A stretch of 64,000 bases of DNA, taken from contig CP120457.1 in NCBI GenBank assembly GCA_034226945.1, positions 558,001-622,000 of the forward strand. The letters run 5' to 3'. The notes below the pieces were generated by a model. That model was not told where the DNA came from and made no database searches. It worked only from the letters and a program-made list of their open reading frames with translations. Positions 44,873 through 63,581 of this stretch are shown piece by piece. This DNA is from Picochlorum sp. SENEW3. Taxonomy: Eukaryota. The first letter of the stretch is position 1. Each line of letters starts with the position of its first letter. The translations under genes were made by a program, and so were the position numbers.

Positions 44873-45598
44873 TCAGAGGTGCCATGATGCCATGGAGACC
44901 AGGGCCACCATCCACAGTCCCACCAAGCTCTGTGAGCCTAGCACAGGAGAAGCATTGCTGGTCTCGCTATTCTGCAGATCGCTGTCAAATTCCGACATGC
45001 TCACGCGGCCATCACCGTCAGCGTCCATTTGGGACATGATCTGGTCTGCTGTCATGCCCACTGCAGTGCAGTTGAGGGTGGAGCAGATCTCGCCGGATGT
45101 CAGCACGCTGTTTGCATCGGTATCAAAGCATCCGAGCCAGTCCTTGATCTGCTGGGGCTCGGTCAGAGACGAGGCGTTATACTTGGCCACCACGCCATTC
45201 AGGCAAGTCTGTGTGGAGGCTCTGAAAGGTGAGGCTGTGGTGCTGTCAGCCATCGTATCAGTGATGGACCCTTGGGAATTTGACGCCAACAACTGCCTTC
45301 TCCGTTGCCTGATCCCATACTTTTCGCAGTACTCCTGAGGACGGCGAAAAGTTTCTCCCCCAGGGCTTTGACGACACCCTCCGGCACAGTTGCATCCGAA
45401 GATATTACACGATCCCTTCCCGCAGTACCACCCTGAAACAATTGTGCAATCACGACAGATTTTCTTGCAGGATGGAATATATGATGGGGGACAACGTAAC
45501 GGATATTCATAAGGTTTGCAGCAGTCTGCGCGGCAGTGCTTCACTGCAGCGAGTGCGAGAACTGCACACAACAGCCACGTATCACTGAGACGCATCAT
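44873..45598 (-). CDS. Family A copy 1: secreted Diedel-like Cys domain + RxLL + 2 EF-hands + GPI-like tail
   Basis: Signal peptide; 12-Cys domain with YCGKGSCNIFGCNCAGGC; RRRQLL; EF loops DTDANSVLTSGE and DADGDGRVSMSE; hydrophobic C-terminus. Confidence 0.85.
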   Translation of the reverse strand: MMRLSDTWLLCAVLALAAVKHCRADCCKPYEYPLRCPPSYIPSCKKICRDCTIVSGWYCGKGSCNIFGCNCAGGCRQSPGGETFRRPQEYCEKYGIRQRRRQLLASNSQGSITDTMADSTTASPFRASTQTCLNGVVAKYNASSLTEPQQIKDWLGCFDTDANSVLTSGEICSTLNCTAVGMTADQIMSQMDADGDGRVSMSEFDSDLQNSETSNASPVLGSQSLVGLWMVALVSMASWHL

Positions 45599-45938
45599 GT
45601 GATCGAATTTATCTTCTTTTCAAAAACAGATGATTGAATTTGTATTTTTTGACCCGGCTTTTGTGGGGCCGGTTCGCAGGTTGTGCTTCGCCTAGATAAG
45701 GGATTGTGGAGGGGCAATCCCTTCGTATGGGAGGCCCGATGGGATGGACGCAAAGATAGGCTAGGTTACGTCACTAGACGTCCGTCATCTGATCGGGCCT
45801 TCCATCGAGCCGGATCGATTGGCAGGAATCTTGCACGAGGGCACGCCTCTTCAAAATCAACAATTCACGGAGACTGGAAAATAGAAAAAGATATTTGCTT
45901 TGTGGTTGGATCCAACAAATTTGTCGCAAAAACCTAGC

Positions 45939-46448
45939 ATGAATTTCTTGGCCTTATCTACGCTCTTGCTGCTTGTAACGCTGCAAAACACCCAAGCCCG
46001 TTCTTGCGTGGTCGGAGTGGATAAAATCGATATTGATAATTTGGATTATGAATATGGATCGCGCAAACTTCTCCCAAAATTCTGCCCGAAGGAGAAGTTT
46101 GAAGAGATGTCGCCACAAAAGGCAACCACTCAGCAGAGGAGTGAATCATTTGAGATGGTATCGGCGGCATTGAAACGCTTTAACGACGACACCAAAGAAG
46201 GGAGATGTGCGTATGGATTTGCGGAGGTCAATGTGCTTGACGGAGTTGGTTGTCGTTTGAAACCAGGCCAGAAGATGGATATGGGAACCAAAACCTATAC
46301 AGCCACCAGGCCAAGCTCGTCAAGTGGCCGAAGCAATGGGTATGCCAAAAAGTCAGTTGTCGTAGAATATACCTGCCTTGGAAACGTTGGAAATAAACGT
46401 TATGTGGCTCTGGCGTACGATGCCAAGTTCACGACGAAATGTATGTAA
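45939..46448 (+). CDS. Small secreted 6-Cys protein of unknown family
   Basis: Signal peptide MNFLALSTLLLLVTLQNTQA, then a basic mature region with 6 Cys. Intronless. Confidence 0.7.
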   Translation: MNFLALSTLLLLVTLQNTQARSCVVGVDKIDIDNLDYEYGSRKLLPKFCPKEKFEEMSPQKATTQQRSESFEMVSAALKRFNDDTKEGRCAYGFAEVNVLDGVGCRLKPGQKMDMGTKTYTATRPSSSSGRSNGYAKKSVVVEYTCLGNVGNKRYVALAYDAKFTTKCM

Positions 46449-47076
46449 GTTGTCCATGAGCAAGCATTACTCAAGCAGGCCACAACTGTGGTACCTGGTC
46501 ACCAGAATGGACTTCACTCTCTTGTGTGAACCATTTGTATAATGCGGCGCCTGAGTGCATCATACAATGATCTCCACAATGTTGCGTACTTTTTTTTTCT
46601 CGTTGTAATATACGGCCTTCGTTTTTATTGTTTAGATTTGATGTATCCTGATCGGGGTTACAGCAACGATCGACCAAATATTCATGGATATTGCTGATCA
46701 GCACGGGAGAGTCCACATTAGTCCAGTCATCACCATGTTGACTGCCACCTACAGAACACTTTTTTCGGCCTGATGAGGCATTTTGTCAAACCAGAGAGGC
46801 TTTTCTAGAGAAATTTGACGGGAACCCCAGAAAGTCGCACATTATCACCTATCCACGCCATGCTACGATTGCGTGAATTTGAATCTGTCATTCTCAATGA
46901 CATCATCCAGCGCTTGTTACATAATTATGTAGAAGGAATCATTTGAACGACGTTTTACGTACTTTATGTCTCAAATGAGGATGATATATACAGGGTTTGA
47001 TGCATGATACACCTCTTGTTTCAGATTCTTGGCTGCCCCTGTGCACAGCACAAAGGAGGGAACAATGGTATTGCAC

Positions 47077-47907
47077 TCACAACAGAAAGAGAACGGCAGT
47101 AGCAAAGATCGAGGCGAAAGCACCACCGATGGAACGTATGCCAGAGCCTGGAGGTGGATTTGGAGATGAATCCAGAGATGGGCTAGGTGATGGCCAATCT
47201 GTCCTTGGGTCACGCAACAAGAGACCAGTTGAAGGGAAGAATACCTGGGAGCTCTCTCCGTCGGGAGAAGAACAAGTAATAGGAGGTAGAACAGTGACGT
47301 TGTTGACCGATCCAGCAATAGAAATACCACGGGGGTTGGCATCATCAGTCTCAAGCAACGTAGCTGGAGAGCCATCAACTTCAAACCTCAAGGTACCTCC
47401 AGCAATATCCGTCGCAACCTTCGCATCCTCTCCTTCAACTGTGGCAATATGCCTCGAGAGAATAGAGGCCAAGAGATCAGTGTCACCCAACAATTCTTCA
47501 GCCGTCATGTTGAAACTGTCTTGAGCAACATAATACAGATCATCAAAAGCACTATCCATGGGGATGATGACCACCAAGTTTCCTTCTGGGGCATCACCAA
47601 TGTCAACATTTGCGGTGGCGTTAAAAATAGCAGAGAGATTCGAAAAGGATGGAGCAGCCAAAATTTCATATGCTTCGGCACAGAGAGGGATCTCTCCAAT
47701 GGTGGTGGCTCCAACTCCACACATCAGGGCTACAGGGCAAAATTCAATGGTGTCACACCGATCGCAACCGAATACGCGTCGGCCTCTGCGATATCGCCGA
47801 CAATTATGTACTCGCGGGATATATACGCCTTGGGCAACACAAACTCCGCCCGGAGTGCAGATTCGTCACGCACCCAACGTCAACAAAGCCACGGATTCTT
47901 TCATCAT
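47077..47907 (-). CDS. Fasciclin (FAS1)-like, probably GPI-anchored surface protein, 2 exons
   Basis: Spliced signal peptide MMKESVALLTLALMCGVGA (intron 47730-47873). FAS1-like motifs VVIIPMDSAF and LLASILSRH, a Pro/Ser stalk and a hydrophobic C-terminus. Confidence 0.65.
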
Positions 47908-48588
47908 GCAACCGGTTTGCAACAATGTCCTTGAGAGTCTGGCTCGATAGTGTAGGAAAATGCAAAATCTTTTGAGTCTTGTTGTATGTGAGCCCATGCG
48001 CTGCTCCAGACAGACTCATGTATACATGTATGGATGCAAGGTTCTGGATAGGTGCGTAATTTGCCAGGGTCGAAACATCACGCAAATTGGTGCTTTTATA
48101 AAAAACTAATTGGTGACGTAACCTAGCCTACTTTTGCGTCCGTCATCTGATCGGGCCTTCCATCGAGCCGGATCGATTGGCAGGAATCTTGCACGAGGGC
48201 ACGCCAGCAACCCTGGTGCGGAATATTGTTATTGAAAAGATAAACTATATATTTGTTTTTCAATTGTGTCTTGGGCAAAGAAACCATCCATAAAGGCGCG
48301 TTCTTTGATGTGTCGTTACGCACGCAGGCGTGTGGGCTTCTGTCCTGGTAGTGTTGTTGAGCAGCAATTGGACCCCATCATTGGGGTATTGCTGTCTTAT
48401 GTTTCAAATATAACATACACATGATATGATACGATCGTACTTGATTGCTTCGTTGCTTGTGATTGCAGATTCTCGCTCACTCGCACGGTCTGCAATACAA
48501 CCAAGGGTGAGAAGGACGTTGAGAAAAGGACACCGCGGCAGAGATCAGGCATCGGCTCTTCGACCAGAAGATTCGACAGTGATACGAT

Positions 48589-49530
48589 ATGAGCAGTCCC
48601 TACCCGGCACAAGGTGATGGCGACAAGGATGGGCCCACGCCTGGACTGGGAAAGTCCTCCCCCAGGCCGGCCCTAGTGGCATATGAGAAGGGTGATACTG
48701 TGGTGGACGTGGAGTCATTGCTCCGCTCCTGCAGCGCCAATGGTCTGTCTGCAAAGCTGACTGACCGCATCCGGGAGGCGGATGTGGACCGGGACGGTGT
48801 GCTGTCTGTGGACGAGCTTGTGGAGGTGATGCGGCGCGAGATGCAGGCGGTGTCCGACCGGAAGCTGTTCCGCAACATCCTGATTGCCCTATTCGTGGCG
48901 GTGCTGGTGCTGATTGCAACTCTATGTGGCACAGTGTATGCTATCGTGGACTTGAGCAAGGAGGTGAAGAACGACAACGGTGTGCTGGTATCCTCGTCTT
49001 CTGGGGATGTCATGGCCACTGGGACCGCCCAACAAACGGTGACGGTTGGTCCAGAGCTACTGAGCCTTCTGGAGTTTCCGGAATCATTGATTAATGCGCA
49101 ATCGGTGATCATTCCCACCACGGCAGGCGGTAAGGCCACAACTTTGGTATACAAGGTTGCCAAAATAACCTCGTCTCCTGAGATGGGCTCCATGGAGGTC
49201 CTCACCCTGGATGGCACGACCTTGCTCACGAATCAGTCGGGGATGTACGAGCAATCGGGCGGTGGTGAGTATCTTCCTGTGTTTGAGCTGGTTGAAAGCC
49301 GACGTAGGCTGCTGATCGACAGCGTTGGGATGCCGGAAACCCAAGGAGCGCCAAGCGTGGTTGTGCAAGCAAGCTCAGGTACTGGTGTTCTACCTGGGTA
49401 TTCACCTCTATCTACTGAATGCTTCAGCTGCATCCAAAATTGCAGAAACAAATATAATCGTGACCGATCATTGGATTGGTCAGAGTACGTAGATTGCATG
49501 GATAGGTGCAAAACAGATTACTGTTACTGA
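48589..49530 (+). CDS. Family B copy 1: EF-hand + TM + luminal domain + RRRLL + Cys-rich peptide
   Basis: EF loop DVDRDGVLSVDE; TM NILIALFVAVLVLIATLCGTVYAIV; SRRRLL; C-terminal CFSCIQNC...CMDRC...C. Confidence 0.85.
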   Translation: MSSPYPAQGDGDKDGPTPGLGKSSPRPALVAYEKGDTVVDVESLLRSCSANGLSAKLTDRIREADVDRDGVLSVDELVEVMRREMQAVSDRKLFRNILIALFVAVLVLIATLCGTVYAIVDLSKEVKNDNGVLVSSSSGDVMATGTAQQTVTVGPELLSLLEFPESLINAQSVIIPTTAGGKATTLVYKVAKITSSPEMGSMEVLTLDGTTLLTNQSGMYEQSGGGEYLPVFELVESRRRLLIDSVGMPETQGAPSVVVQASSGTGVLPGYSPLSTECFSCIQNCRNKYNRDRSLDWSEYVDCMDRCKTDYCY

Positions 49531-51144
49531 TTTGGAGCTCTGAGGGTGCATGCACACTGTTGCTGATTGTATCCTATGCGTCGATGTTCGAGCCTATATC
49601 GCTATATACGCGCACGATTGTGTACATACGATCTTTAGTCAGCACTCAGTATGGCTGATGAATACCACTGCTGCTTGGGTGTCGGCAAGTTTGCTCAAGC
49701 TCAAGGGGATTGTACATACCTGGTGGGAAATGTCTGGTCTGCTGCCTTACTCTCTATAAGATCCGAATGCGAGCAATGCTCCTTCACTGCATCGTACTTG
49801 TTAATCCCGTTGTTGTATGGTTTGTAACAAGCCGTATTGTGCATTATCACGAATCACGTGCCCCCTCTGAAAGCGACAAATATTTATACGTAGCCACTGT
49901 CCATGTGTGGGTATTTACACTAGCCATTCATACCGAGAAGTGATGCTTATGGCAAGTACATTGATTCATTGGCCTGTGCCATGTTGTTATGGACCAATTT
50001 TCTCTTGTCTGTCATCTTTTCTGCTTCAACCAACGCGATGGAATGTCAATGTCTTTCATTCTCATGCTTTCTGATAGAAAGCACTCGCCACCTGATAAAC
50101 CGTAAAGGCACCAATCCCTTCCTGCACCATCAACTTTAGCGGATAAGTGAAAATAAGTGGGGCTACAGAATCGCATGGAATATGGGGTCTGCCTCCATTT
50201 TGGGTCCCAAGCCTTGGGCCCACTTAAGTGGCCAGATGAATCCTTCAAGATACTGTAGGGTGTCCATCAGATCGATCTGGAGTGTTAGAAGGCAGCATTA
50301 TTTATTGCTGGCTCAGATCGTCCAGATGACGCCAGGAGATCTCCTGGTCTATAGACCTTGCATCATTTGAATTTCACATTTGAATTTCTGAAGGGGCCGC
50401 AAATCCTCGATCGCCCATATCCCTAGCGCTTGAAGGCCATAATTCATGAATATAAAGATCATTGAAATGTCGTATACGCGCAAGCGGTGTAGAAATTCTA
50501 AAGGGGAGCAATGGTTAACTCACAATAACAGAAACAGCAAACGGCTCTTAGCAACCGAAAGAGCCCTTTCTATATAACAGAATGCATCGAAAAATAATAG
50601 ATTTCAGCGGAAAACGGTGTTAGAACGCTCTTGGAAAAGAGACCGACCAAAGAGGAAGAGAAACGAAGTGAAAGCTTTGGCTCAGGAAGTTTAGAATTTG
50701 AATGTTCATGTGTTGCACCACTCTAAGTGCTTAATGACAAAGCTACAACAAGCGAGGATGAAAGCAAGTATTCTTTGCATGGTTCAGACGACAAGAGCCA
50801 GAGTGGAGAGCCATCATAGTGAGACTAAATCTATCAACCATCCCAGGGGAAGGAGGTGGAGCAGGAGGTCGACCTCCAGACATCTGGAACAAGGATCAAG
50901 CAATTCATCATAACCATGGTTACGTCCATCTTTGATCGTCTACCGCATCTAAAGAATTTATTTGCATCTACTGTAATCTATTGCGCACTGTTTCCAACAA
51001 AGATCGGCCAGGTATCCAATTTTGGGATTCGTAAATATTTGCAGGATAAGAAAAGGAGAGAAAATCCTGAAATCACGAAAAGTTAGCGGCGGTAAGGGTA
51101 AATATACAGACAGTTTAGATGCAGAGAATGGCTCAGAATGATGG

Positions 51145-52179
51145 TCAATCAATACAGTTGTACTGCTTGCCAAGGTTCAGAGCGGACTGGTAATCTCCTG
51201 GACGCCCATAGTTCACGCACCCATCCCACAAAGGATGGTTGAATAAAATCCTATATTGTCGGAACTTTTCGCAAATACAAGAGGTTTGTGAAACGTCCAT
51301 GGCAGAGGGTCCAATTTCTAGACACCAGTTAACCCCTGATATAAGATAGTTGCAGGAAAACCCTAAAATACCACTACTATCGCTTGTCACGTCTCCCGTT
51401 GTCCCCATATCCATGACAATGGTTGCTCCGCTGTGTCCAGGTACCCCATCATCACCCTCGCTCATCAGTTTTCTGCGGCGATTACCGTCCGACAAGAGCA
51501 AAGGACTGTAATTATTGTCGCCTTCATCAGAAATCTTGTACACTCCCGACTGGTTCATAAAGAGGGTCGTGCCGTCCACGGTGTTGACCTCCAATGTGCC
51601 TGTGCTGGGAAATGCCGTCATCTTGCCAACCTTGTACACGGTAGTCTTGCCACCGTCGACGGTAGGAATGACCACCGAGTGCGCTTTGCTCAGTGATGAT
51701 GGGAAATTAAGCATGCTCAGTAGCTCTGGACCAACCGTCACCGTTTGTTGGGCGGTCCCAGTGGCCATGACATCCCCAGAAGACGAGGACACCAGCACAC
51801 CGTTGTCGTTCTTCACCTCCTTGCTCAGGTCGATGATGGCATATACCGTGCCGCACAGCGTGGCCACCAGCACCAGCACCGCCGCGAACAGAGCGATCAG
51901 GATGTTGCGGAACAGCTTGCGATCTGAGACCGCCTGCATCTCTGTGCGAATCACCTCAATGAGCTCGTCCACAGACAGAGCGCCATCGTGATCCACATCC
52001 GCCTGCCGGATACGCTCAGCCACTTTGGGGGATAAGCCCTTCATGCTGCAAGAACGCAACAGGGCATCCACATCCACCACGACATTGCCATGCTCGTTTG
52101 ACAAGGTGGGCGAGGTGGGGAATGATTTTAGTCCAACTTCTACGGGGACATCGCCATGTCCATTGTCTTCGTTTCCCAT
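51145..52179 (-). CDS. Family B copy 2 (inverted, divergent)
   Basis: EF loop DVDHDGALSVDE, the same TM, RRRKLM, and a different 6-Cys C-terminal peptide. ATG at 52179. Confidence 0.85.
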   Translation of the reverse strand: MGNEDNGHGDVPVEVGLKSFPTSPTLSNEHGNVVVDVDALLRSCSMKGLSPKVAERIRQADVDHDGALSVDELIEVIRTEMQAVSDRKLFRNILIALFAAVLVLVATLCGTVYAIIDLSKEVKNDNGVLVSSSSGDVMATGTAQQTVTVGPELLSMLNFPSSLSKAHSVVIPTVDGGKTTVYKVGKMTAFPSTGTLEVNTVDGTTLFMNQSGVYKISDEGDNNYSPLLLSDGNRRRKLMSEGDDGVPGHSGATIVMDMGTTGDVTSDSSGILGFSCNYLISGVNWCLEIGPSAMDVSQTSCICEKFRQYRILFNHPLWDGCVNYGRPGDYQSALNLGKQYNCID

Positions 52180-52782
52180 CTTCTTCGTTGCGTTGTGCTG
52201 TCTAGCGTGTCCTGTCTGCTGGATGTTTGTGTTGTAGTTTTTCACGTTCCCTTGTCCTGGATGGCCGACCGTGCGAACGCGAGAATTTCTGCACAACAGG
52301 AAGGTCACCGTGAAATACGCGCATAAAAGATAGACCTATGAAAGAATTGGCGACTTGCGTGCCAAACCTTTGGTACAGCGCGATGCAGGCCATGGCCACG
52401 TGCACAGCGGCAGCTCGAAAGAACTCACCTTTCCAGGGAAGTCGCGGTTCACTGCCACGAAAGTAAGATCCTTTTTTGTGTATTATAGTTGATTTTTTTT
52501 TCGTATGAGGTCAGGACCAAGCAGTGCTGGCTGAATGCGTAATCTTCCCGGGTCGAGGGGATGACGCAAAGGCCCACAGGCCGGAGTTCGAGTAACGTAA
52601 CCTTGTCATGTTGGTCGGACATGCCTGTCCAAACAGACCTTTCATGGGAGAATCGTGAGGTTCTGCGAACGTGCCCTACTAGCGGCGAAGAAGAAGAGCA
52701 AACTGTCAGAGTTGTGGTGAAGACTCCCATCAAACCAATCATGATTTTGTCTTCAAATTAGTATAGGTATTATTATCATTAG

Positions 52783-53538
52783 ATGATGATGCGTGTCGGC
52801 GAGATGGGGTTGTTCTGTGCTGCTCTCGCACTCGTGGTGCGAGGCTCACAGGCGGATTGCTGCTATCATTATTCCTACTCCATTTTTATTTGCCCGAAAA
52901 GTTCATTTCCACGCCGAGGTAGTATGTGCATATCCGAGTGGTCTGTCTGCCTGGACTGCACAAAAACCAACTATTGGTACTGTGGGAAGGGACCATGCAA
53001 CATATTTGGGTGCAACTGTGACGGAGGGTGTCGCGAAAGGCCAGTTGGAGAGACAGGCAAACCTCAGGAATATTGCGCCAGGCACGGCCTTCCACCTACA
53101 AACATGAAGAGCAAGCGACTCCTGATGGCGTCAGATAGCAAGATGTCTTCGAGTGACGCAGCCCTGATGATGACTGACAACTCCACAGCCTCACCTTACA
53201 GTGCTTCCACACAGGCCTGCCTGGATGGCGTGGTGGCCAAGTACAACGCCTCCTCTCTCACTGAGCCCCGGCAGATCAAGGACTGGCTTGGCTGTTTTGA
53301 CGCCGATGCAAACAGCATGCTCTCCTTGGACGAGATCTGCTCCACCCTCAACTGCACCGCATTGGGCATGACAGCAGACCAGATCATGTCACAGATAGAT
53401 ACTGATGGTGATGGCATCGTGAGCATGTCAGAGTTTGACAGCGACCTGCAGGGATTTGAGACCAGCAATGCTCGGTCTGTGCTGCTTGTCAGCTGGAGTT
53501 TGATGGGCTCATGGCTGGTGACCCTGGTGGCATGGTGA
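52783..53538 (+). CDS. Family A copy 2 (inverted, divergent)
   Basis: Signal peptide; 12-Cys domain with YCGKGPCNIFGCNCDGGC; KSKRLL; two EF-hands; hydrophobic tail. Confidence 0.85.
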   Translation: MMMRVGEMGLFCAALALVVRGSQADCCYHYSYSIFICPKSSFPRRGSMCISEWSVCLDCTKTNYWYCGKGPCNIFGCNCDGGCRERPVGETGKPQEYCARHGLPPTNMKSKRLLMASDSKMSSSDAALMMTDNSTASPYSASTQACLDGVVAKYNASSLTEPRQIKDWLGCFDADANSMLSLDEICSTLNCTALGMTADQIMSQIDTDGDGIVSMSEFDSDLQGFETSNARSVLLVSWSLMGSWLVTLVAW

Positions 53539-53996
53539 CTATGCGGCACAGCGGACCTGTGCTGTGTTTGGTGTTCGCCAAGCATGCTGCTTTCTCATCC
53601 ATAGATGGATGGACATCTGTCTCATTGAGACAGTCACAAGGAAGGTGTGGAACAAACCGGTTTTAGGTGAGACCATCCTCACATATCCTCTGAGAATACC
53701 ATTTCAACACATTTTCTCAACTTCAGAAGGTTCTGCATCCCTATGATGATGGTGCACGTAGCTCCTTCAATTTCTCAAACTTTCATATGATAAAATACAT
53801 GCATGTAAGGATTTCGTCCTGTGGAACTTGAACGATTTGGAGGATATTCGTCATATTTTTCGCCAGTCTCGTACTACTTCCTTTAGAGAAAGAAAAATCT
53901 CCTCATCTAGGCAATAAAAAATAGGAAAATTTAAGAGAATCAAGGACTGTGGCAGATTGTCTTCCTCGCCTTTCTGTGTACAGGGTCGCTGGAAAC

Positions 53997-54890
53997 ATGG
54001 AGAAGGCTACCCAGTCTACCCACAGACACGCAGCCTTGGTCCCAGCAGCAGAAGAAAACGCTGTGGATCTAGCAACGAAACATGCGGGAAGGAAGGTATG
54101 GTTGATCAAGGTACCAGAATTTGTAGCCAAGGAGTGGAGGCGTGCCTGTCACGACACGACATCCTCTGCCCCCAGAAAACCTTCTCAGCAGGATGATCCC
54201 GCCGATGATAATGGTCTCACAACAGAAGACCAACAACATAAACAAAAACCGGACAGAACCACGGCGACGATGCGGCAGCAAGGCGAGTCTCCCGTCATCT
54301 TGGGCACATTGTCCATTGGGCAGGGTGTCACCTTGCGTTTATCTGATTCGTTCGAGGGGACCAAGGAGCTTCCAAAGGAATACAACCTCGTGAATAATGC
54401 TCGAGCTGGGCCATCCATGATGGTCTTCTCGGACGATGGGGATGGACTGTACAGGTCTGTTGAAGGTATTGTCCAACACCGGTTGGATGTGAATGCTCGT
54501 GATATTCAGGATGCGTATCGGCGGGTGTCGAGGGAGCGATTTAAACGAGAAGCGGAAGGAGGGTCTCGGAAGAAGCGCACGGTCAAGATGATGACGGATA
54601 GTAAGATTATTGATATTAGAAAGCCAGTGGGGGCTGTGCAGAAGAAGAAAGAGCGCAAGGATACCTTGTTATTAGAGAAGCGGGTTGCCATGGATAAAAA
54701 GGAATTGCTTCCTGTTTTATTTCGGTTGTTCCAGAGACAATCTCAATGGACGTTTACGCAGTTGCAAAAGGAGACGAATCAGCCAACCCAGCATTTGAAG
54801 ATTGTGTTGGGGGAGATTGCAATGCAGAATAAGGCTGGCCCATACAAGGACATGTGGGAATTAAGCAAGGAGAGCAAAGTGCATGTGTAA
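53997..54890 (+). CDS. GTF2F2: Transcription initiation factor IIF beta subunit (RAP30)
   Basis: Motifs KVWLIKVPEFVAKEW and LPKEY, plus the winged-helix LF.LF....WT..QL...TNQP...LK.VL.EI...NK.GP....WEL. Confidence 0.9.
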   Translation: MEKATQSTHRHAALVPAAEENAVDLATKHAGRKVWLIKVPEFVAKEWRRACHDTTSSAPRKPSQQDDPADDNGLTTEDQQHKQKPDRTTATMRQQGESPVILGTLSIGQGVTLRLSDSFEGTKELPKEYNLVNNARAGPSMMVFSDDGDGLYRSVEGIVQHRLDVNARDIQDAYRRVSRERFKREAEGGSRKKRTVKMMTDSKIIDIRKPVGAVQKKKERKDTLLLEKRVAMDKKELLPVLFRLFQRQSQWTFTQLQKETNQPTQHLKIVLGEIAMQNKAGPYKDMWELSKESKVHV

Positions 54891-54999
54891 TAATTATTTG
54901 GTATGTATGTAATATCGTAGTCGTAGTAGGTATATGGATGATGCCGGACATGATGGTAGCGAGGCTACCAGGAATTCGACAAGGAGGCCTTTGGGGAGA

Positions 55000-55162
55000 C
55001 TGACTGCCGCCAACACAGCAGAATAATACATCAAAACTGTCAGTATATGAATCATCATGATATGAAAATACCCACAACAAAGCTCAAACCCTCTATATCA
55101 TACACGAGTCGTGAGAAGAAACACCAAACCGGTACAAAGAGAACAACACAGTGGTGCTGATG
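55000..55162 (-). pseudogene. Duplicated 5' fragment and upstream region of the VPS13-like gene (also ~58152-58314 and ~61306-61468)
   Basis: Matches ~44096-44256 (ccgccaacacagcagaataatacatcaaaact...cacagtggtgctgatg). Confidence 0.85.
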
Positions 55163-55305
55163 GGATCTCATTGCCATCCACCCTATATACACATCAAGGA
55201 GGACCGGACAGGTCGTGCATCACCCGGCACTAGATCAAAGTGATTCAAAACCTGGAAACGAGGCATACCTGCAAAAGAGCATGCTCGGAGGCAATCTGAA
55301 AACCA

Positions 55306-56025
55306 TCAGAGGTGCCATGATGCCATGGAGACCAGGGCCACCATCCACAGTCCCACCAAGCTCTGTGAGCCTAGCACAGGAGGAACATTGCTGGTCTCGC
55401 TATTCTGCAGATCGCTGTCAAATTCCGACATGCTCACGCGGCCATCACCGTCAGCGTCCATTTGGGACATGATCTGGTCTGCTGTCATGCCCACTGCAGT
55501 GCAGTTGAGGGTGGAGCAGATCTCGCCGGATGTCAGCACGCTGTTTGCATCGGTATCAAAGCATCCGAGCCAGTCCTTGATCTGCTGGGGCTCGGTCAGA
55601 GACGAGGCGTTATACTTGGCCACCACGCCATTCAGGCAAGTCTGTGTGGAGGCTCTGAAAGGTGAGGCTGTGGTGCTGTCAGCCATCGTATCAGTGATGG
55701 ACCCTTGGGAATTTGACGCCAACAACTGCCTTCTCCGTTGCCTGATCCCATACTTTTCGCAGTACTCCTGAGGACGGCCTCTTACTACCCAATGGCTTTG
55801 ACGACACCCTCCGGCACAGTTGCATCCGAAGATATTACACGATCCCTTCCCGCAGTACCACCCTGAAACTCTTGTGCAATCACGACAGATAAACTGGCAA
55901 GATTCAATAAGGTCGTCACAACCGAACGGATATTCATAAGGTCTGCAGCAGTCTGCGCGGCAGTGCTTCACTGCAGCGAGTGCGAGAACAGCACAAAACA
56001 GCCACGTATCACTGAGACGCATCAT
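55306..56025 (-). CDS. Family A copy 3
   Basis: Near-identical to A1 except in two loops of the Cys domain (PFGCDDLIESCQF; SHWVVRGRP). Confidence 0.85.
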   Translation of the reverse strand: MMRLSDTWLFCAVLALAAVKHCRADCCRPYEYPFGCDDLIESCQFICRDCTRVSGWYCGKGSCNIFGCNCAGGCRQSHWVVRGRPQEYCEKYGIRQRRRQLLASNSQGSITDTMADSTTASPFRASTQTCLNGVVAKYNASSLTEPQQIKDWLGCFDTDANSVLTSGEICSTLNCTAVGMTADQIMSQMDADGDGRVSMSEFDSDLQNSETSNVPPVLGSQSLVGLWMVALVSMASWHL

Positions 56026-56644
56026 GTGATCAGATTTATCTTCTTTTTCTTCTTTTCAAAAACAAATACCCTTGAATTTGTATTTTTTGACCCGGCTTTT
56101 GTGGGGCCGGTTCGCAGGTTGTGCTTCGCCAAAGGGATTGTGGAGGGGCAATCCCTTCGTATGGGAGGCCCGATCGGATGGACGCAAAGGTAGGCAAGGT
56201 TACGTCACTAGACGTCCGTCATCTCATCCGGCCTTCCATCGAGCCGGATCGATTGGCAGGAATCTTGCACGAGGGCACGCCAGCAACCCTGGCGCGGAAT
56301 ATTGTTATTGAAAAGATAGACTATATATTTGCTTTCCAGTTTTGTTCTGGGCAAATAAGCCATCCATAAAGGCGCGTTCTTTGATGTGCCGTTACGCACG
56401 TAGGCGTGTGGTAGTGTCGTTGAGCAGCAACTGGACCTAATCATCGGGGTATTATTGCTGTCTTTTGTTTCAAATATAATATATACATGATAGTAATTGA
56501 TTGCTTCGTCGCTTGTGATTGCAGATTCTCGGTCACTCGCACCGTCTGCAATACAACCAAGGGTGAGAAGAACATTGAGAAAAGGACACCGCGGCAGAGA
56601 TCAGGCATTGGCCCCTGGACCAGACGATTCGACAGTGGTACGAT

Positions 56645-57598
56645 ATGAGCAGTCCCTACCCGGCACAAGGTGATGGCGATAAGGATGGGCCCACGCCTGG
56701 ACTGGGAAAGTCCTCCCCCAGGCCGCCCCCAGTGGCATACGAGAAGGGTGATACCGTGGTGGACGTGGAGTCATTGCTCCGCTCCTGCAGCGCCAAGGGC
56801 CTGTCTGAAAAGCTGACTGACCGCATCCGGGAGGCGGATGTGGACCGGGACGGTGTGCTGTCTGTGGACGAGCTTGTGGAGGTGATGCGGCGTGAGATGC
56901 AGGCGGTGTCCGACCGCAAGCTGTTCCGCAACATCCTGATTGCCCTATTCGTGGCGGTGCTGGTGCTGATTGCAACTCTATGTGGCACAGTGTATGCTAT
57001 CGTGGACTTGAGCAAGGAGGTGAAGAATGACAATGGGGTGCTGGTATCCTCGTCCTCTGGTGATGTCATGTCAACAGGCTCTGCCCAGCAGACGGTGACG
57101 GTTGGTCCAGAGCTGCTGGCTCTGCTCGACTTCCCCGAATCCCTCAGCAATGTTCACTCATTGGTTATTCCTGCCATGGAAGGTGATGAGACGACGGTGT
57201 ACAAGACTGCGAAACTCATCTCGTCGCCTGGCACAGGTTCCATGAATATTGCCACAGTGGACGGCACACTGCTGCTCATGAACCAGTCTGGCGTGTACGA
57301 GCGCTCCGAGTCCGATGGATACGTCCCTATATTTGAAATGTCTGATCGCCGCCGTAAGCTGCTGATCGACAGAGTCGAGGGACCAGGTTCCCAAGGAGCA
57401 CCAAGTGTGGTTGTGAGCATGGCATCTGGTCCTGTACGCCCCAGATACAGATGGGGCCCATGCCTCTATAGAGGGTTTAAGGCTCTTTGTTATAAATCGT
57501 GCTATCGTCGTTACGATTGGAACACCGTTGAGGTCAGTGATTGTCAGGGGCGATGTGATAAAAAATATGATTGTGGCCTCGACAGTACTTTGCAGTAA
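56645..57598 (+). CDS. Family B copy 3
   Basis: EF-hand, TM, RRRKLL, and C-terminal C...CYKSC...CQGRC...C. Confidence 0.85.
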   Translation: MSSPYPAQGDGDKDGPTPGLGKSSPRPPPVAYEKGDTVVDVESLLRSCSAKGLSEKLTDRIREADVDRDGVLSVDELVEVMRREMQAVSDRKLFRNILIALFVAVLVLIATLCGTVYAIVDLSKEVKNDNGVLVSSSSGDVMSTGSAQQTVTVGPELLALLDFPESLSNVHSLVIPAMEGDETTVYKTAKLISSPGTGSMNIATVDGTLLLMNQSGVYERSESDGYVPIFEMSDRRRKLLIDRVEGPGSQGAPSVVVSMASGPVRPRYRWGPCLYRGFKALCYKSCYRRYDWNTVEVSDCQGRCDKKYDCGLDSTLQ

Positions 57599-57931
57599 TC
57601 AACAGCAACAAGTGCATACAGACTGCGCAGGGCATGCTGTTGGTTGTGAAGACATCATCCAAGCAGGAATGCAATCAATTGCAGCGCACCCAAACCGAAA
57701 ATATTAACAATACCAAATACTGATACTAGTGGGTATTGTTAAATAATACTTGTACAGATATGAAACATTGGTACATGAAATTGCTTGTATTCTCTGAAAT
57801 GCCATCAACATGGATGGATGCCACAAAGGGCATGTTTGATGCTAAAAAACACTGGCCAAACTAATCAATCCAGAACCAGGACACAATCCAACCAATGCTC
57901 ATTGTAATCAAAATATAGCAGAACCACCAAG

Positions 57932-58036
57932 CAACCCAGCATTTGAAGAGTGTTGGGGGAGATTGCAATGCAGAATAAGGCTGGCCCATACAAGGACATG
58001 TGGGAACTAAGCAAGGAAAGCAAAGTGCACGTGTAA
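57932..58036 (+). pseudogene. Duplicated 3' fragment of the TFIIF beta gene (second copy at 61098-61202)
   Basis: Matches 54784-54890 (...cagaataaggctggcccatacaaggacatgtggg...gtgtaa) with small indels. Confidence 0.85.
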
Positions 58037-58457
58037 TAATTATTTGGTATGTATGTAATATCGTAGCAGTAGTAGTAGTAGGTATATGGATGATGCTGGA
58101 CATGATGGTAGCGAGGCTACCAGGAATTCGACAAGGAGGCCTTTGGGGAGACTGACTACCGCCAACACAGCAGAATAATACATCAAAACTATCAGTATAT
58201 GAATCATGATGATATGAATATACCCACACAAAAGCTCAGACCCTCTATATCATATACGAGTCGTGAGAAGAAACACCAAACCGGTACAAAGAGAACAACA
58301 CAGTGGTGCTGATGGGATCTCATTGCCATGCACCCTATATGCACATCGAGGAGAACCGGATAGGTCGTGCATCACCCGGCACTAGATCAAAGTGATCCAA
58401 AACATGGAAACGAGGCATACCTGCAAAAGAGCATGCTCAGAAGCAATCTGAAAACCA

Positions 58458-59186
58458 TCAGAGGTGCCATGATGCCATGGAGACCAGGGCCACCATGCAC
58501 AGTCCCACCAAGCTCCATGATCCCAGCACAGGAGGAGCATTGCTGGTCTCGCTATTCTGCAGATCGCTGTCAAATTCCGACATGGTCACGCGGCCATCAC
58601 CATCAGCGTCCATTTGGGACATGATCTGGTCTGCTGTCATGCCCACTGCAGTGCAGTTGAGGGTGGAGCAGATCTCGCCGGATGTCAGCACGCTGTTTGC
58701 ATCGGTATCAAAGCATCCGAGCCAGTCCTTGATCTGCTGGGGCTCGGTCAGAGACGAGGCGTTATACTTGGCCACCACGCCATTCAGGCAAGTCTGTGTG
58801 GAGGCTCTGAAAGGTGAGGCTGTGGTGCTGTCAGCCATCGTATCAGTGATGGACCCTTGGGAATTTGACGCCAACAACTGCCTTCTCCGTTGCCTGATCC
58901 CATACTTTTCGCAGTACTCCTGAGGACGGCGAAAAGTTTCTCCCCCAGGGCTTTGACGACACCCTCCGGCACAGTTGCATCCGAAGATATTACACGATCC
59001 CTTCCCGCAGTACCACCCTGAAACTCTTGTGCAATCACGACAGATTTTCTTGCAGGATGGAATACGTGGGGGATATAGACAACGTAACGGATATTCATAA
59101 GGTTTGCAGCAGTCTGCGCGGCAGTGCTTCACTGCAGCGAGTGCGAGAACTGCACACAACAGCCACGTATCACTGAGACGCATCAT
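58458..59186 (-). CDS. Family A copy 4
   Basis: Near-identical to A1, with variable loop CLYPPRIPSC. Confidence 0.85.
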   Translation of the reverse strand: MMRLSDTWLLCAVLALAAVKHCRADCCKPYEYPLRCLYPPRIPSCKKICRDCTRVSGWYCGKGSCNIFGCNCAGGCRQSPGGETFRRPQEYCEKYGIRQRRRQLLASNSQGSITDTMADSTTASPFRASTQTCLNGVVAKYNASSLTEPQQIKDWLGCFDTDANSVLTSGEICSTLNCTAVGMTADQIMSQMDADGDGRVTMSEFDSDLQNSETSNAPPVLGSWSLVGLCMVALVSMASWHL

Positions 59187-59814
59187 GTGATCGAATTTAT
59201 CTTCTTTTCAAAAACAGATGATTGAATTTGTATTTTTTGACCCGGCTTTTGTGGGGCCGGTTCGCAGGTTGTGCTTCGCCTAGATAAGGGATTGTGGAGG
59301 GGCAATCCCTTCGTATGGGAGGCCCGATGGGATGGACGCAAAGATAGGCTAGGTTACGTCACTAGACGTCCGTCATCTGATCGGGCCTTCCATCGAGCCG
59401 GATCGATTGGCAGGAATCTTGCACGAGGGCACGCCAGCAAACCCTGGCGCGGAATATTGTTATTGAAAAGATAGACTATATATTTGTTTTCCAATTTTGT
59501 TGTGGGCAAACAAGCCATCCATAAAGGCGCGTTCTTTGATGTGTGTCGTTACGCACGCAGGCGTGTGGGCTTCTGTCCTGGTAGTGTTGTTGAGCAGCAA
59601 GTGGACCCCATCATTGGGGTATTATTGCTATCTTTTGTTTCAAATATAATATATACATGATAGTAATTGATTGCTTCGTCGCTTGTGATTGCAGATTCTC
59701 GGTCACTCGCACCGTCTGCAATACAACCAAGGGTGAGAAGAACATTGAGAAAAGGACACCGCGGCAGAGATCAGGCATCGGCTCTTCGACCAGAAGATTC
59801 GACAGTGATACGAT
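59187..59814. promoter_or_regulatory. Putative bidirectional promoter between A and B (homologs at 56026-56644; split at 45599-45847 + ~48137-48588)
   Basis: Conserved ~620 bp spacer between divergent start codons. It contains ttacgtca (TGACGTAA on the opposite strand, CRE/bZIP-like). Confidence 0.6.
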
Positions 59815-60720
59815 ATGAGCAGTCCCTACCCGGCACAAGGTGATGGCGATAAGGATGGGCCCACGCCTGGACTGGGAAAGTCCTCCCCCAGGCCGGCCCT
59901 AGTGGCATATGAGAAGGGTGATACTGTGGTGGACGTGGAGTCATTGCTCCGCTCCTGCAGCGCCAAGGGCCTGTCTTCAAAGCTGACTGACCGCATCCGG
60001 GAGGCGGATGTGGACCGGGACGGTGTGCTGTCTGTGGACGAGCTTGTGGAGGTGATGCGGCGCGAGATGCAGGCGGTGTCCGACCGGAAGCTGTTCCGCA
60101 ACATCCTGATTGCCCTATTCGTGGCGGTGCTGGTGCTGATTGCAACTCTATGTGGAACAGTGTATGCGATCGTGGACTTGAGCAAGGAGGTGAAGAACGA
60201 CAATGGGGTGCTGGTATCCTCGTCCTCTGGTGACGTGATGGCCACAGGGACAGCCCAGCAAACGGTGACGGTTGGTCCAGAGCTGCTGGCTCTGCTCGAC
60301 TTCCCCGAATCCCTCAGTAATGTTCACTCACTGGTCATTTCTGCCATTGGAGGCGATGAGACGACGGTGTACAAGATTGCGAAACTCATCTCGTCGCCTG
60401 GCACAGGTTCCATGAATATTGCCACAGTGGACGGCACAATGCTGCTCGTGAACCAGTCTGGCGTGTACGAGCGCTCCGAGCCCGATGAATACATGCCTGT
60501 ATTTGAAATGTCTGATAGCCGTCGTAAGCTGCTGATCGACAGTGTCGAGCGACCAGGTTCCCAAGGAGCTCCAAGTGTGGTTGTGAGCGTGGGATCTGGT
60601 CCCATAACACCCAGATACAGCCCATGCGTCAATTGTTATAAAGCGTGCTATGATAATTACGGAAACGCTGTTGATGTCAGTGATTGTCACGGGCGATGTC
60701 GTAAAACACATTATTGTTGA
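59815..60720 (+). CDS. Family B copy 4
   Basis: EF-hand, TM, SRRKLL, and C-terminal CVNCYKAC...CHGRC...C. Confidence 0.85.
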   Translation: MSSPYPAQGDGDKDGPTPGLGKSSPRPALVAYEKGDTVVDVESLLRSCSAKGLSSKLTDRIREADVDRDGVLSVDELVEVMRREMQAVSDRKLFRNILIALFVAVLVLIATLCGTVYAIVDLSKEVKNDNGVLVSSSSGDVMATGTAQQTVTVGPELLALLDFPESLSNVHSLVISAIGGDETTVYKIAKLISSPGTGSMNIATVDGTMLLVNQSGVYERSEPDEYMPVFEMSDSRRKLLIDSVERPGSQGAPSVVVSVGSGPITPRYSPCVNCYKACYDNYGNAVDVSDCHGRCRKTHYC

Positions 60721-61611
60721 TCAACAGTACTTTGCTGTAATCAACAGCAACAAGTGCATACAGACTGCGCAGTGCATGCTGTTGATTGTGAAGACACCAT
60801 CCAAGCAGGAATGAAATCAATTGCAGCGCACCCAAACCGAAAAAGTTAACAATACAAAATACTAATACCAGTGGGCATTGTGAATATTAATAATAATACT
60901 TGTTCAAAAAACCATGTAGATATGAAACATTTGTACATGATGCTACTTGTATTCTCTGAAATGCCATCAACATGGATCCCACAAAGGGCATGTTTGATGC
61001 TAAAAAACACTGGCCAAACTAATCAATCCAGAACCAGGACACAATCCAACCAATGCTCATTGTAATCAAAATATAGCAGAACCACCCACCCACCAAGCAA
61101 CCCAGCATTTGAAGTGTGTTGGGGGAGATTGCAATGCAGAATAAGGCTGGCCCATACAAGGACATGTGGGAATTAAGCAAGGAGAGCAGAGTGCATGTGT
61201 AATAATTATTTGGTATGTATGTAATATCGTAGTAGGTATATGGATGATGCTGGACATGATGGTAGCGAGGCTACCAGGAATTCGACAAGGAGGCCTTTGG
61301 GGAGACTGACTACCGCCAACACAGCAGAATAATACATCAAAACTATCAGTATATGAATCATGATGATATGAATATACCCACAACAAAGCTCAGACCCTCT
61401 ATATCATGCACGAGTCGTGAGGAAAAACACCAAACCGTTACAAAGAGAACAACACAGTGGTGCTGATGGGATCTCATTGCCATGCACCCTATATGCACAT
61501 CGAGGAGAACCGGATAGGTCGTGCATCACCCGGCACTAGATCAAAGTGATTCGAAACCTGAAAACGAGGCATACCTGCAAAAGAGCATGCTCGGAGGCAA
61601 TCTGAAAACCA

Positions 61612-62050
61612 TCAGAGGTGCCATGATGCCATGGAGACCAGGGCCACCATCCACAGTCCCACCAAGCTCTGTGAGCCTAGCACAGGAGGAACATTGCTGG
61701 TCTCGCTATTCTGCAGATCGCTGTCAAATTCCGACATGCTCACGCGGCCATCACCGTCAGCGTCCATTTGGGACATGATCTGGTCTGCTGTCATGCCCAC
61801 TGCAGTGCAGTTGAGGGTGGAGCAGATCTCGCCGGATGTCAGCACGCTGTTTGCATCGGTATCAAAGCATCCGAGCCAGTCCTTGATCTGCTGGGGCTCG
61901 GTCAGAGACGAGGCGTTATACTTGGCCACCACGCCATCCAGGCAAGTCTGTGTGGAGGCACTGAAAGGTGAGGCTGTGGTGCTGTCAGCCATCGTATCAG
62001 TGATGGACCCTTGGGAATTTGACGCCAACAACTGCCTTCTCCATTGCCTG
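61612..62050 (-). pseudogene. Family A copy 5, 5'-truncated (signal peptide and Cys domain missing)
   Basis: Homology to family A ends at ~62050, just upstream of the (W)RRQLL site. The EF-hand/GPI half is intact. Confidence 0.75.
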
Positions 62051-62630
62051 GTTTTAGGCCTAAGTGGCAATCATGTATACATATGTATATATATAGGCCC
62101 ACAGTTCTGGATAGGAGCGTAATCTGCCGGGGTCGGAACATCACGCAAATTGGTGTTGCTAGTGACGTAACCTAACCTACTTTTGCGTATGTCATCTAGA
62201 TGATATCTCGTGCGAAAATTGCATTCATAATTCATACTCATAAACACCGCTATTCTCCGATAAAAAAATTATTTCGAATAGTGTGAAATAGTTCAATACA
62301 ATTGTCGGGAAAGATTCAGGCTTTCCTTCAGGCGAAATTTATTCTTTTTAGGCGGAACGGTCCTAAGTTCTAGGTTTGTTGGGCACGAGTACGTGTTTCG
62401 CTAGGTGGGCTACTGTGGGATTGGGTTTGTGCGGGTTCATGGAAATTATACACTTTTAAAAGTACATCATTAATTAAATACAGCAGAACACTCTGAATGA
62501 CTGTTGTTACAGCACGCTGCCATTGTCCTTCTGGCCTATTCAGGCCCTCTGCGCATACCAAAACCAAATAGAATTCGTGTCTTTCTTCAGCCGTATTCAA
62601 TCAATCTTCTGGCGGTTTGTGCAGGACGAG

Positions 62631-63581
62631 ATGCAAGATAAGGAGGCTGCAATTGACGAAGGGGTGGTGGACGTGGAGTTGCTGCTGCAGAATGGGGCCA
62701 TCCCACCCAAGCTGGCAGACCGCATACGAGCAGCGGATGCCAATCAGGATGGGCGCCTCTCAGTGCTGGAGCTGGTGGAGGTGATGCGCAGAGAGCAGAA
62801 GGCGGTTGAGGACCGCAAGCTATTCCGTAACATAATGTTGGCCCTTCTCGTTGCCGTGCTGGTGCTGATTGCTACGCTGTGTGGCACAGTCTACGGCATT
62901 GTCAAGCTGACGCAGGAGGTGAATGACCAGGATGGTTTGCTGGTGTCAGCCTCCACTGGAGAGGTGATGGGCACAGGACTGGCACAGGAACCACTCCCTT
63001 TATCTCGCCTGTATCGTTTCGGTGACTCCTCCGAGTTGAGAAATGTGGAGAGTGTCATTGTCGCCTCGAAGCCGGACGAAGGCAGTGCTGATGGCAGTGA
63101 GGAGGTGCAAATGTTTCGAGTATCCAAAATCAGCGCAGTGCCGAACGTGCGCGCCACGGTATACACAGTCGACGGCAGCAAGCTAGAGGTAGACGACACA
63201 GGTGTGCGTGTGGTGGACCAGGATAATGACGTCACGCAGTCTTCTGGTGGCAGAAGACTTTCTGAGACTGCTCCTGTGCAGACTGGAGGGGACGGCACTG
63301 TGCCAGTTGACGCCTATGTGGTTGCCAACATCTCACCCCGTTCAAATGGATGCGACTCTAGTTTGGTAAACAGTTATAAGTGGTGCTTTGACAACTACTC
63401 GAGTGATAGTGACATAGCGCGTTGTCAAGCACGTGCCCAGCAAAGGTATCAGGAATGCAATGCAACCTCTTGCGACAGTTCCAGTTATATGCGAGCATAT
63501 AAGTGGTGTTTGGACAACTACTCGGGTGACAGTGACATAGCGGGTTGCCAAGCAAGAATGCGGGAAAGGTATAACTGTTAA
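62631..63581 (+). CDS. Family B copy 5 (divergent; duplicated C-terminal peptide)
   Basis: EF loop DANQDGRLSVLE, TM, GGRRLS, and two tandem 4-Cys units. ATG at 62631; an upstream exon is possible because gtgcag lies just before it. Confidence 0.8.
   Translation: MQDKEAAIDEGVVDVELLLQNGAIPPKLADRIRAADANQDGRLSVLELVEVMRREQKAVEDRKLFRNIMLALLVAVLVLIATLCGTVYGIVKLTQEVNDQDGLLVSASTGEVMGTGLAQEPLPLSRLYRFGDSSELRNVESVIVASKPDEGSADGSEEVQMFRVSKISAVPNVRATVYTVDGSKLEVDDTGVRVVDQDNDVTQSSGGRRLSETAPVQTGGDGTVPVDAYVVANISPRSNGCDSSLVNSYKWCFDNYSSDSDIARCQARAQQRYQECNATSCDSSSYMRAYKWCLDNYSGDSDIAGCQARMRERYNC
63351..63578 (+). repeat. Internal coding tandem duplication (120-nt period) in B5
   Basis: CDSS...YKWC.DNYS.DSDIA.CQAR...RY..C occurs twice, starting at 63351 and 63471. 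Confidence 0.9.

Follow-up and report, generated by a model that had tools for sequence, protein, structure and literature searches.

Amplified head-to-head gene pairs encoding putative membrane-tethered precursors of cysteine-rich peptides in Picochlorum sp. SENEW3

We examined a stretch of 64,000 nucleotides from Picochlorum sp. SENEW3 (contig CP120457.1, positions 558,001 to 622,000; called the window below), the right-hand end of which carries an array of two kinds of gene, designated A and B, whose products may be paired precursors of disulfide-rich peptides. Reading of the open reading frames (ORFs) between 44.8 and 63.6 kb with the standard code yielded exactly five A and five B genes, all of them intronless. 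The A genes were located at 44873-45598 (A1, 241 amino acids), 55306-56025 (A3, 239 aa) and 58458-59186 (A4, 242 aa) on the minus strand and at 52783-53538 (A2, 251 aa) on the plus strand, with a truncated relic, A5, at 61612-61992 (minus strand). The B genes lie at 48589-49530 (B1, 313 aa), 56645-57598 (B3, 317 aa), 59815-60720 (B4, 301 aa) and 62631-63581 (B5, 316 aa) on the plus strand, and at 51145-52179 (B2, 344 aa) on the minus strand. Each A/B pair is arranged head to head, B2/A2 being inverted in orientation relative to the other pairs, and the amplified, divergent A/B pairs described in an earlier reading of the letters alone (the sequence-only reading) were borne out by this count and layout. 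When A2, A4, B2, B3 and B5 were used as tblastn queries against the entire 64 kb, the same ten places and no others were recovered, with no copy between 1 and 44 kb of the window, a part in which ordinary housekeeping genes are found, among them those for ATP sulfurylase, PFK and Met-tRNA ligase as well as one resembling VPS13. The A1 and A4 proteins share 97% identity; A2 and B2 are old paralogs, A2 being 65% identical to A1; and B5 represents a divergent subfamily with about 40% identity to B3. The named relatives of A and B all come from Picochlorum (BPE23, SENEW3, renovo and soloecismus). We consider it highly probable that the array and the architectures of the two proteins are real.

The A proteins start with a hydrophobic N-terminal leader, which is followed by a domain of about 75 residues with 12 Cys, a basic-Leu site (RRQLL, or KRLL in A2), two EF loops and a hydrophobic C-terminal end. 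The mature protein begins D-C-C after the leader, and past the site there are four Cys and two sequons for N-glycosylation, together with the EF loops, both canonical and of 12 residues (DTDANSVLTSGE and DADGDGRVSMSE). Calmodulin matches of A in the PDB reach E-values of about 1e-7, and the scores of Pfam EF-hand models are mostly slightly below their cut-offs, A5 alone scoring above. The signal peptide and the glycosylphosphatidylinositol (GPI) signal of A were judged by eye and by hydropathy: a hydrophobic 19-mer runs from about residue 220 to the C-terminus with ...ETSNAPP... ahead of it, and A is probably GPI-anchored. The relic A5 retains the EF-hand and tail part past the site only; its homology, traceable up to 62049, covers the gene from the RRQLL site onward, whereas upstream of this there is a stop codon followed by sequence that is unrelated, and it has neither the leader nor the Cys domain.

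The Cys domain of all four full-length copies matched the Pfam family Diedel (PF13164) above its cut-off of 21.3 bits (A1, 33.0; A2, 28.7; A3, 34.0; A4, 35.8), a match that is absent from A5. A phmmer comparison of A4 with PDB entry 3zzo (CG11501) gave an E-value of 1.3e-8, the core common to both being YCG.G.CNIFGCNC.GGC, and P0029, a full-length A relative, carries a precomputed PF13164 annotation. This significant match suggests that the Cys domain of A is a relative of Drosophila Diedel (CG11501; structures 3zzo and 3zzr). As described in the accessible portion of PMC3307722, Diedel is a protein of 115 residues with 10 Cys, in which a conserved, disulfide-knotted part with an exposed Ile-Phe tip (SD2) is accompanied by a more variable part (SD1), and two disulfides link SD2 to the first four mature residues; the occurrences reported there are limited to drosophilids, one aphid and DNA viruses of insects. 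The likeness to A consists in a secreted Cys-rich domain with the SD2 core CG.G.CNIFGCNC.GGC and in an N-terminal Cys pair directly after the leader. Furthermore, the SD2-like core is the invariant part of A, and both variable tracts of A map to the flanking SD1-like segments, SD1 also being the divergent part of Diedel (PMC3307722, same portion). On the other hand, Diedel is a free protein, whereas the A domain, with its 12 Cys, occupies some 75 residues at the mature N-terminus of an algal protein of 239-251 aa. The basic-Leu site connects it there to two EF-hands and a predicted membrane anchor, and it would become free only once cleaved. A Protein Atlas search with the A Cys domain gave no usable matches, a word-index search for short Diedel-like proteins gave no candidates, and no relatives of A or B were found in viral contigs.

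Comparison of A1, A3 and A4 with A2 gave dN/dS values of 0.08-0.09 for the A core, indicating purifying selection on it. The gene models P0030 and P0031 ('Calmodulin-like protein 5') for A begin at an internal Met and comprise the EF-hand half only. That the 5' half of A is nevertheless coding is supported by its continuous ORF, the Pfam match, the dN/dS of 0.08-0.09 and the full-length P0029.

In the B proteins, an EF loop is followed by one transmembrane (TM) segment, a beta-rich conserved part, a basic-Leu site (RRKLL, RRRLL, RRKLM or RRLS) and a tail with 6 or 8 Cys. There is a single canonical EF loop per protein, DVDRDGVLSVDE; in B3 it is found at residue 65, the TM segment at about 97-120 and RRKLL at 236. 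The TM segment, with a hydropathy of 2.7-2.8, is the sole hydrophobic peak, a leader being absent, and in the B3 model a single helix (residues 74-125) continues from the EF-hand into it. Cys residues and an N-glycosylation sequon are restricted to the C-terminal side of the TM segment. From these features we infer that B is a type II (signal-anchor) membrane protein. As the leader is absent and the EF-hand precedes the TM helix, the EF-hand of B would be cytosolic, whereas those of A follow a signal peptide and would be luminal or extracellular. The domain orders given for both proteins by the sequence-only reading were thus recovered by motif reading, but its 'mirror-image' layout does not extend to their topology. 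A relationship between A and B by circular permutation was considered and not adopted, the similarity being too weak (A4 residues 189-237 versus B3 residues 61-109: hhalign E 5e-4, probability 31%; BLASTP E 0.099). The order of EF-hand and then hydrophobic segment is found in both proteins, as second EF-hand plus C-terminal end in A and as EF-hand plus TM segment in B.

The tails past the site are encoded at 49315-49530 in B1, 51145-51462 in B2 (after RRKLM; 105 aa, 6 Cys), 57365-57598 in B3, 60535-60720 in B4 and 63264-63581 in B5, where two 4-Cys repeats follow RRLS. The B1, B3 and B4 tails have the common pattern C-x(2-8)-CX3C-x(12-16)-CX3C-x(4-5)-C, which reads C-x8-CX3C-x13-CX3C-x5-C in B3 and C-x2-CX3C-x12-CX3C-x5-C in B4, and the B3 model places helices (277-289 and 297-307) over the CX3C motifs. 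A CX3C-Xn-CX3C helix-loop-helix is also the pattern of alpha-hairpinins, plant defence peptides that are excised from a larger precursor (PMC11591084 and PMC7191063, in the parts accessible). We take this as a resemblance of pattern and not as membership. Alpha-hairpinins have four Cys, whereas the B1, B3 and B4 tails have six, with a third Cys pair.

To place B among other proteins, we built a profile from 24 B relatives, which retrieved 617 cluster representatives at E <= 0.001, 148 of them at <= 1e-10 and 56 at <= 1e-30; the Protein Atlas yielded, as a lead only, B-similar unnamed EF-hand clusters in diatoms, haptophytes and chlorophytes. No Pfam model covered the luminal module in any of the 14 B relatives scanned, and a fold search of the B model against the PDB returned nothing at E <= 0.001. 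Of the listed representatives, 86 (from P0032-P0134, 190-600 aa) were realigned, and 21 of them, in which the anchor column was absent, were dropped. Among the 65 kept, 57 carry RR(x)L 19-43 residues past a conserved Gly, and three of the other eight carry GRKLM, GKRLL or GRKLL. What follows the site ranges from 27 to 351 residues and from 0 to 24 Cys, and is of unrelated kinds, among them short peptides rich in Cys, long Cys repeats, stretches rich in Pro and, in P0067, DUF285 repeats. B is therefore one branch of a broad family, the members of which look like membrane carriers of constant make-up that bear a conserved site and a cargo that can be exchanged. Two B-related loci were obtained from metagenome contigs, L001 and the short L002; the B5-like gene of L001 (2633-3322) has a GSARRL site with a Cys-free stretch after it. 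P0015 and P0020-P0022 likewise have no Cys past the site, so that Cys-rich cargo is not universal even among close relatives of B.

The basic-Leu site itself reads RQLL or KRLL in A and RKLL, RRLL, RKLM or RRLS in B, with RR and L at least 90% conserved among the 24 aligned B relatives. In both proteins it is placed at a domain boundary and fits the RxLx/RxxL motif of site-1 protease and other subtilases. According to the accessible part of a 2026 review (PMC13082318), AtS1P/SBT6.1 and SBT3.5 cut at RxxL or RxLx, which is also the site-1 protease consensus in mammals, and the substrates listed include RALF23, cut after INRRIL, and PROSCOOP12, cut after TGRRLM. In flax, the pro-region of pectin methylesterase (PME) has the motifs RRLL and RKLL and is removed in the Golgi by a subtilisin-like protease (PMC4008260, likewise in part). 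The A and B sites resemble those at the pro-region boundaries of RALF23, PROSCOOP12 and type-1 PMEs (RRIL, RRLM, RRLL, RKLL), although these substrates, which are cut within the secretory pathway, are soluble proteins with a signal peptide, whereas B is a predicted type II membrane protein and A is probably GPI-anchored. As the motif is kept while the parts downstream of it are unrelated, it looks like a boundary between carrier and cargo. In both proteins a conserved basic-Leu site is thus present where the sequence-only reading had placed a basic processing-type site, towards the part that could be released, and we lean slightly towards both A and B being cleaved there.

It might alternatively be that nothing is released, and that A and B bind Ca2+ at the surface or in endomembranes, acting for example in wall assembly, adhesion or Ca2+ handling, with RRxL as a structural or sorting motif. 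We regard this as unlikely: RRxL is the one residue pattern kept across a family with unrelated downstream parts, it matches subtilase sites for which cutting has been found experimentally (PMC13082318), and a site of this kind also marks the domain boundary in A. What speaks for it are the EF-hands in both proteins, the N-glycosylation sequons and Cys in the EF part of A, a weak fasciclin-like ORF in a neighbouring insert, and the fact that cleavage is itself an inference.

The old B2/A2 pair retains a head-to-head layout across about 600 bp, as the sequence-only reading had claimed, with a spacer of 603 bp (52180-52782), compared to 619 bp for A3/B3 (56026-56644, a presumed bidirectional promoter) and 628 bp for A4/B4 (59187-59814). 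Between this old pair and the young copies, dS is 0.64 in the EF and tail part of A and higher or saturated elsewhere. The B2/A2 spacer, previously called unrecognisable, can nevertheless be aligned, with 46.6% identity to the A3/B3 spacer versus 34 +/- 4.4% in 100 dinucleotide shuffles, none of which reached the observed value; it has colinear conserved islands in common with the young spacers, and in three places 7 or more successive bases are identical. An 11-mer with an ACGT core, CAAGGTTACGT, is found 177 nt (52606 region) and 169 nt (56194 region) from the A start, and a GCACGT-containing block is among the further colinear islands; both are candidate shared promoter elements. The pairing was also recovered in run X5, which belongs to a different study; one of its DNA contigs (1,677 nt) spans the 5' end of B2, the spacer and A2. 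In P. renovo, the gene models NNA_004633 (A2-type), 004635 and 004636 (B) are numbered consecutively, and in BPE23 two B genes are three locus tags apart.

The young pairs form part of a tandem repeat with a period of about 3,148 bp, revealed by self-blastn, in which 54784-58896 and 57932-62050 are 92.4% identical. With the help of an identity profile, this was resolved into the units U3 (54784-57931) and U4 (57932-61097; 92.4% identity to U3) and a partial third unit (61098-62050) that ends within A5. U3 starts in the 3' end of a TFIIF-beta gene (ORF 53997-54890; Pfam TFIIF_beta). The unit start lies about 107 bp ahead of the stop codon of this gene, and its 3' end is copied at 57932 and 61098; this repetition at unit starts marks the left breakpoint of the duplication. 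Unit 1 is a dispersed copy, the A part of which is 97% identical to that of unit 4.

That the array should be an assembly artefact or a decaying set of pseudogenes appears very improbable, given that the units differ by 7.6% and have distinct intact ORFs in each, that the cores are under purifying selection, that unit-specific sequences are present in other runs, and that the annotations of two further named Picochlorum genomes also contain B genes as neighbours, at least two of them. Such an origin could be read into the fragmentation of the short-read contigs at the array in all four runs, no piece of which spans it, into the relic state of A5, into the truncation of two P. renovo B gene models (among the public models P0171 and P0173-P0175 examined) and into the missing 5' half of A in public models.

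Substitutions between U3 and U4 are distributed unevenly. Noncoding DNA differs at 67 of 1352 positions (5.0%), compared to which the constant part of A differs less (8/425, 1.9%; Fisher p 0.005), and the Cys domain of A (23/223, 10.3%; Fisher p 0.003) and the B tail (32/220, 14.5%; Fisher p 1.3e-6) differ more, so that the peptide-coding parts have diverged 2-3 times as much as noncoding DNA, in agreement with the system being described earlier as diversifying. Where A3 differs from A1 and A4, it does so almost exclusively in two short tracts within the Diedel-like domain; these measure about 40 and 18 nt, contain in-frame indels and are surrounded by DNA that is otherwise identical (tract 1 of A3 at about 55890-55925; tracts of A4 at 59045-59086 and 58931-58948). 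A frameshift in the second variable tract of A3 was also considered and rejected, the DNA alignment showing substitutions and an in-frame 3-nt gap. Positive selection on the peptide parts is likely from these comparisons.

Along the genes, dS varies sharply. Among A1, A3 and A4 it is 0-0.03 in the EF part of A, and it is 0.03-0.09 in the 5' part of B, whereas the 3' half of B1 differs from B3 and B4 with a dS of 1.2-2.7; the juxtamembrane parts of B1 and B2 in turn differ by 0.08 only. This pattern indicates that the constant parts are homogenised and that B1 is a chimera, with a B4-like 5' part, a B2-like juxtamembrane part and a tail of its own type. Between strains the tails are well conserved (B4 versus P0001, 59/61; B2 versus P0006, 103/105; B1 versus P0002, 63/71; B1 versus P0004, 66/71), and in P0004 a B1-type tail is joined to a B2-like constant part (82%). 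Compared with more distant Picochlorum proteins, the constant parts of B retain 62-75% identity and the tails 13-32%. The term 'hypervariable' used in the sequence-only reading therefore applies between paralogs and species, but not between strains, where the B tail types are conserved. The picture suggested is one of old, maintained peptide types that are reshuffled onto homogenised carriers and turn over between species. In record 6 of run X19, from a related organism, window positions 57311-57429 are joined to 60884-61056 with 135 other letters between them, a B tail swapped as a cassette between flanks that are at least 90% alike.

We propose that A and B are paired, membrane-tethered precursors of disulfide-rich peptides, and assign to this precursor-and-release reading as a whole a probability of roughly 45%. 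According to it, A would enter the endoplasmic reticulum (ER) via its signal peptide, its pair of EF-hands bearing disulfides, and B would insert as a type II protein, with a cytosolic EF-hand, a TM helix and a luminal beta domain. Both would fold and form their disulfides in the ER, after which a Golgi subtilase of the site-1-protease type would cut after RxL(L/M), so that A's Diedel-like module and B's tail peptide (60-105 residues) would be set free to the exterior. The EF-hand anchors would remain at the membrane, that of A on the outer face via GPI and that of B as a type II stub, and the cytosolic EF-hand of B could couple trafficking or shedding to Ca2+. At the level of the genome, the array would grow through tandem duplication, with gene conversion keeping the constant modules alike, and the peptide parts would diverge faster than noncoding DNA and be reshuffled between constant modules.

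Several observations weigh against this proposal or parts of it. Of the 76 positions of the Diedel profile, the match spans only 29-73, there are 12 Cys in the A domain versus 10 in Diedel, and the AlphaFold model of A has a pLDDT of 37.9, which makes it unusable for fold comparison. In the B3 tail, the helices over the CX3C motifs are of moderate confidence (block pLDDT 51-73), and the CX3C pattern is absent from the B2 and B5 tails. The dN/dS of the variable parts in young pairs, 1.4-2.2, is derived from small counts (e.g. nd 14.2, sd 1.8); some noncoding 60-nt windows match the A tracts in divergence (identity 0.67-0.73, chiefly through indels); and the same picture could result if constraint were relaxed or if patches were converted from other copies. 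As for pairing, no A-like ORF was found in the 2.6 kb upstream of the B5-like gene of L001, and in two named genomes another contig carries one A-like and one B5-like paralog, separated by about 270-300 gene numbers. These paralogs are apparently unpaired, although unannotated partners may adjoin them. Finally, A1 and A4 are 97% alike whereas the B1 and B4 tails are 46% alike. A and B variants thus lack co-variation.

This lack of co-variation also bears on what such peptides might do. A small Cys-rich secreted peptide encoded beside a membrane protein, with high diversity, is the arrangement of the Brassica S locus, where a haplotype has a single pair whose two members evolve together. Picochlorum differs from it in having several pairs per genome, a releasable peptide in both partners and no co-variation. 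A recognition pair of this kind, in which one released peptide is the ligand and the anchored part of the partner, either the EF-hand pair held by GPI or the luminal domain of B, is the receptor, for self, mate or kin, is in our view rather unlikely, although the old pair keeps tight head-to-head linkage and the exposed parts diverge fast. Further points on its side come from parts of published texts: insect Diedel is described as an extracellular signalling protein (PMC3307722), the hydrophobic Ile-Phe tip of which is conserved here as CNIFGC, and secreted peptide signals are processed in green algae (PMC6313938, PMC6919629). Besides the missing cognate co-variation (97% for A1/A4 versus 46% for the B tails), the occurrence of a B1-type tail on different constant modules and a wide B family mostly without sign of an A partner speak against it, and several different pairs per genome fit a repertoire better than one specificity per haplotype.

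A toxin/immunity (killer) cassette, the released peptide of which would harm competitors or non-carriers and the partner of which would protect the producer, seems more improbable still. Divergent, co-located genes with a diversifying secreted part would suit it, as would the strain differences in copy number hinted at by contigs in which a join leaves out one unit or A1, but the Pfam scan and the PDB fold search gave no similarity to known toxin or immunity families, the releasable Cys-rich part is present in both partners, and A does not co-vary with B. More generally, we find it doubtful that A and B are a matched two-component diversifying recognition system (self/non-self, mating or killer/immunity) with B as a pan-algal, Ca2+-sensing 'EF-hand carrier' that sheds cargo at GRRxL. 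In such a system the matched partners would be the two released peptides, or one of them and the anchored EF-hand module of the other protein. A co-expressed repertoire of extracellular peptides for defence or competition is the function we would put forward tentatively, at less than even odds; the presence of several units per genome, together with stable peptide types and fast turnover, favours a repertoire directed against outside targets.

The building blocks of the system are of known kinds, namely EF-hands, a domain similar to Diedel, a pro-site of the subtilase type and a peptide that resembles hairpinins, and we would class it with processed, Cys-rich, secreted-peptide precursors. Chlamydomonas secretes pro-peptides that are processed by subtilisin-like convertases, a precedent among green algae both for processing of such precursors at basic sites and for cell-to-cell peptide signals (PMC6313938 and PMC6919629, in the parts accessible); its precursors are not EF-hand membrane proteins, are unpaired and form no diversifying array. 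The Picochlorum literature that we found, PMC6141220 included and taken from partial texts with supplements not covered, does not describe the present genes. The earlier assertion that no such algal system had been described can be retained for the combination, as in the literature searched we found no description of these blocks joined into two membrane-anchored precursors, of conserved divergent pairs that have been amplified, or of the broad carrier family to which B belongs, but not for its parts, which have relatives in Diedel, the B family and the site-1-protease motif. An algal, EF-hand-fused relative of Diedel would alter the view of how this fold is distributed and deployed. The B family, apparently large and unnamed across marine algae, in which the sole invariant feature beyond the membrane module is a subtilase-type site before interchangeable cargo, would offer a testable handle on regulated protein shedding in algae. 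Peptide divergence faster than that of noncoding DNA, in a picoalgal genome of the 13-Mb class, points to ongoing selection by biotic interactions, which in these industrially used strains have hardly been studied. The system is invisible in current annotations, since public models miss the peptide half of A and mis-fuse one B copy. The latter, P0173, is a sixth B-type copy listed beyond the window, the gene model of which (1,186 aa) is fused to a CLC-b chloride channel.

The spacer of the A1/B1 pair is split by an insert of 2,289 bp (45848-48136). It is flanked by a 69-bp direct repeat of spacer sequence, the left copy (45779-45847) and the right copy (48137-48205) being identical at 69/69 positions. 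Within the insert there is an ORF (45939-46448, plus strand) whose 169-aa product starts with a hydrophobic stretch and matched no Pfam family, and another for 215 aa with the weak fasciclin match mentioned above (E 0.01; 47077-47724, minus strand). Loose contig ends were found at 45845 in runs X2 and X9, and an X5 contig links 44190 directly to 45845, omitting A1, which suggests structural polymorphism between strains at this point. Other contigs of run X5 link 56047 to 59200 and 57743 to 60888, omitting 3,152 and 3,144 bp, that is, one unit; either that strain has one unit fewer or the repeat was collapsed by the assembler. Finally, contigs of run X19, which we guess to be RNA and take as a hint only, cover all of A3 (1,006 nt, 55110-56093) and parts of B.

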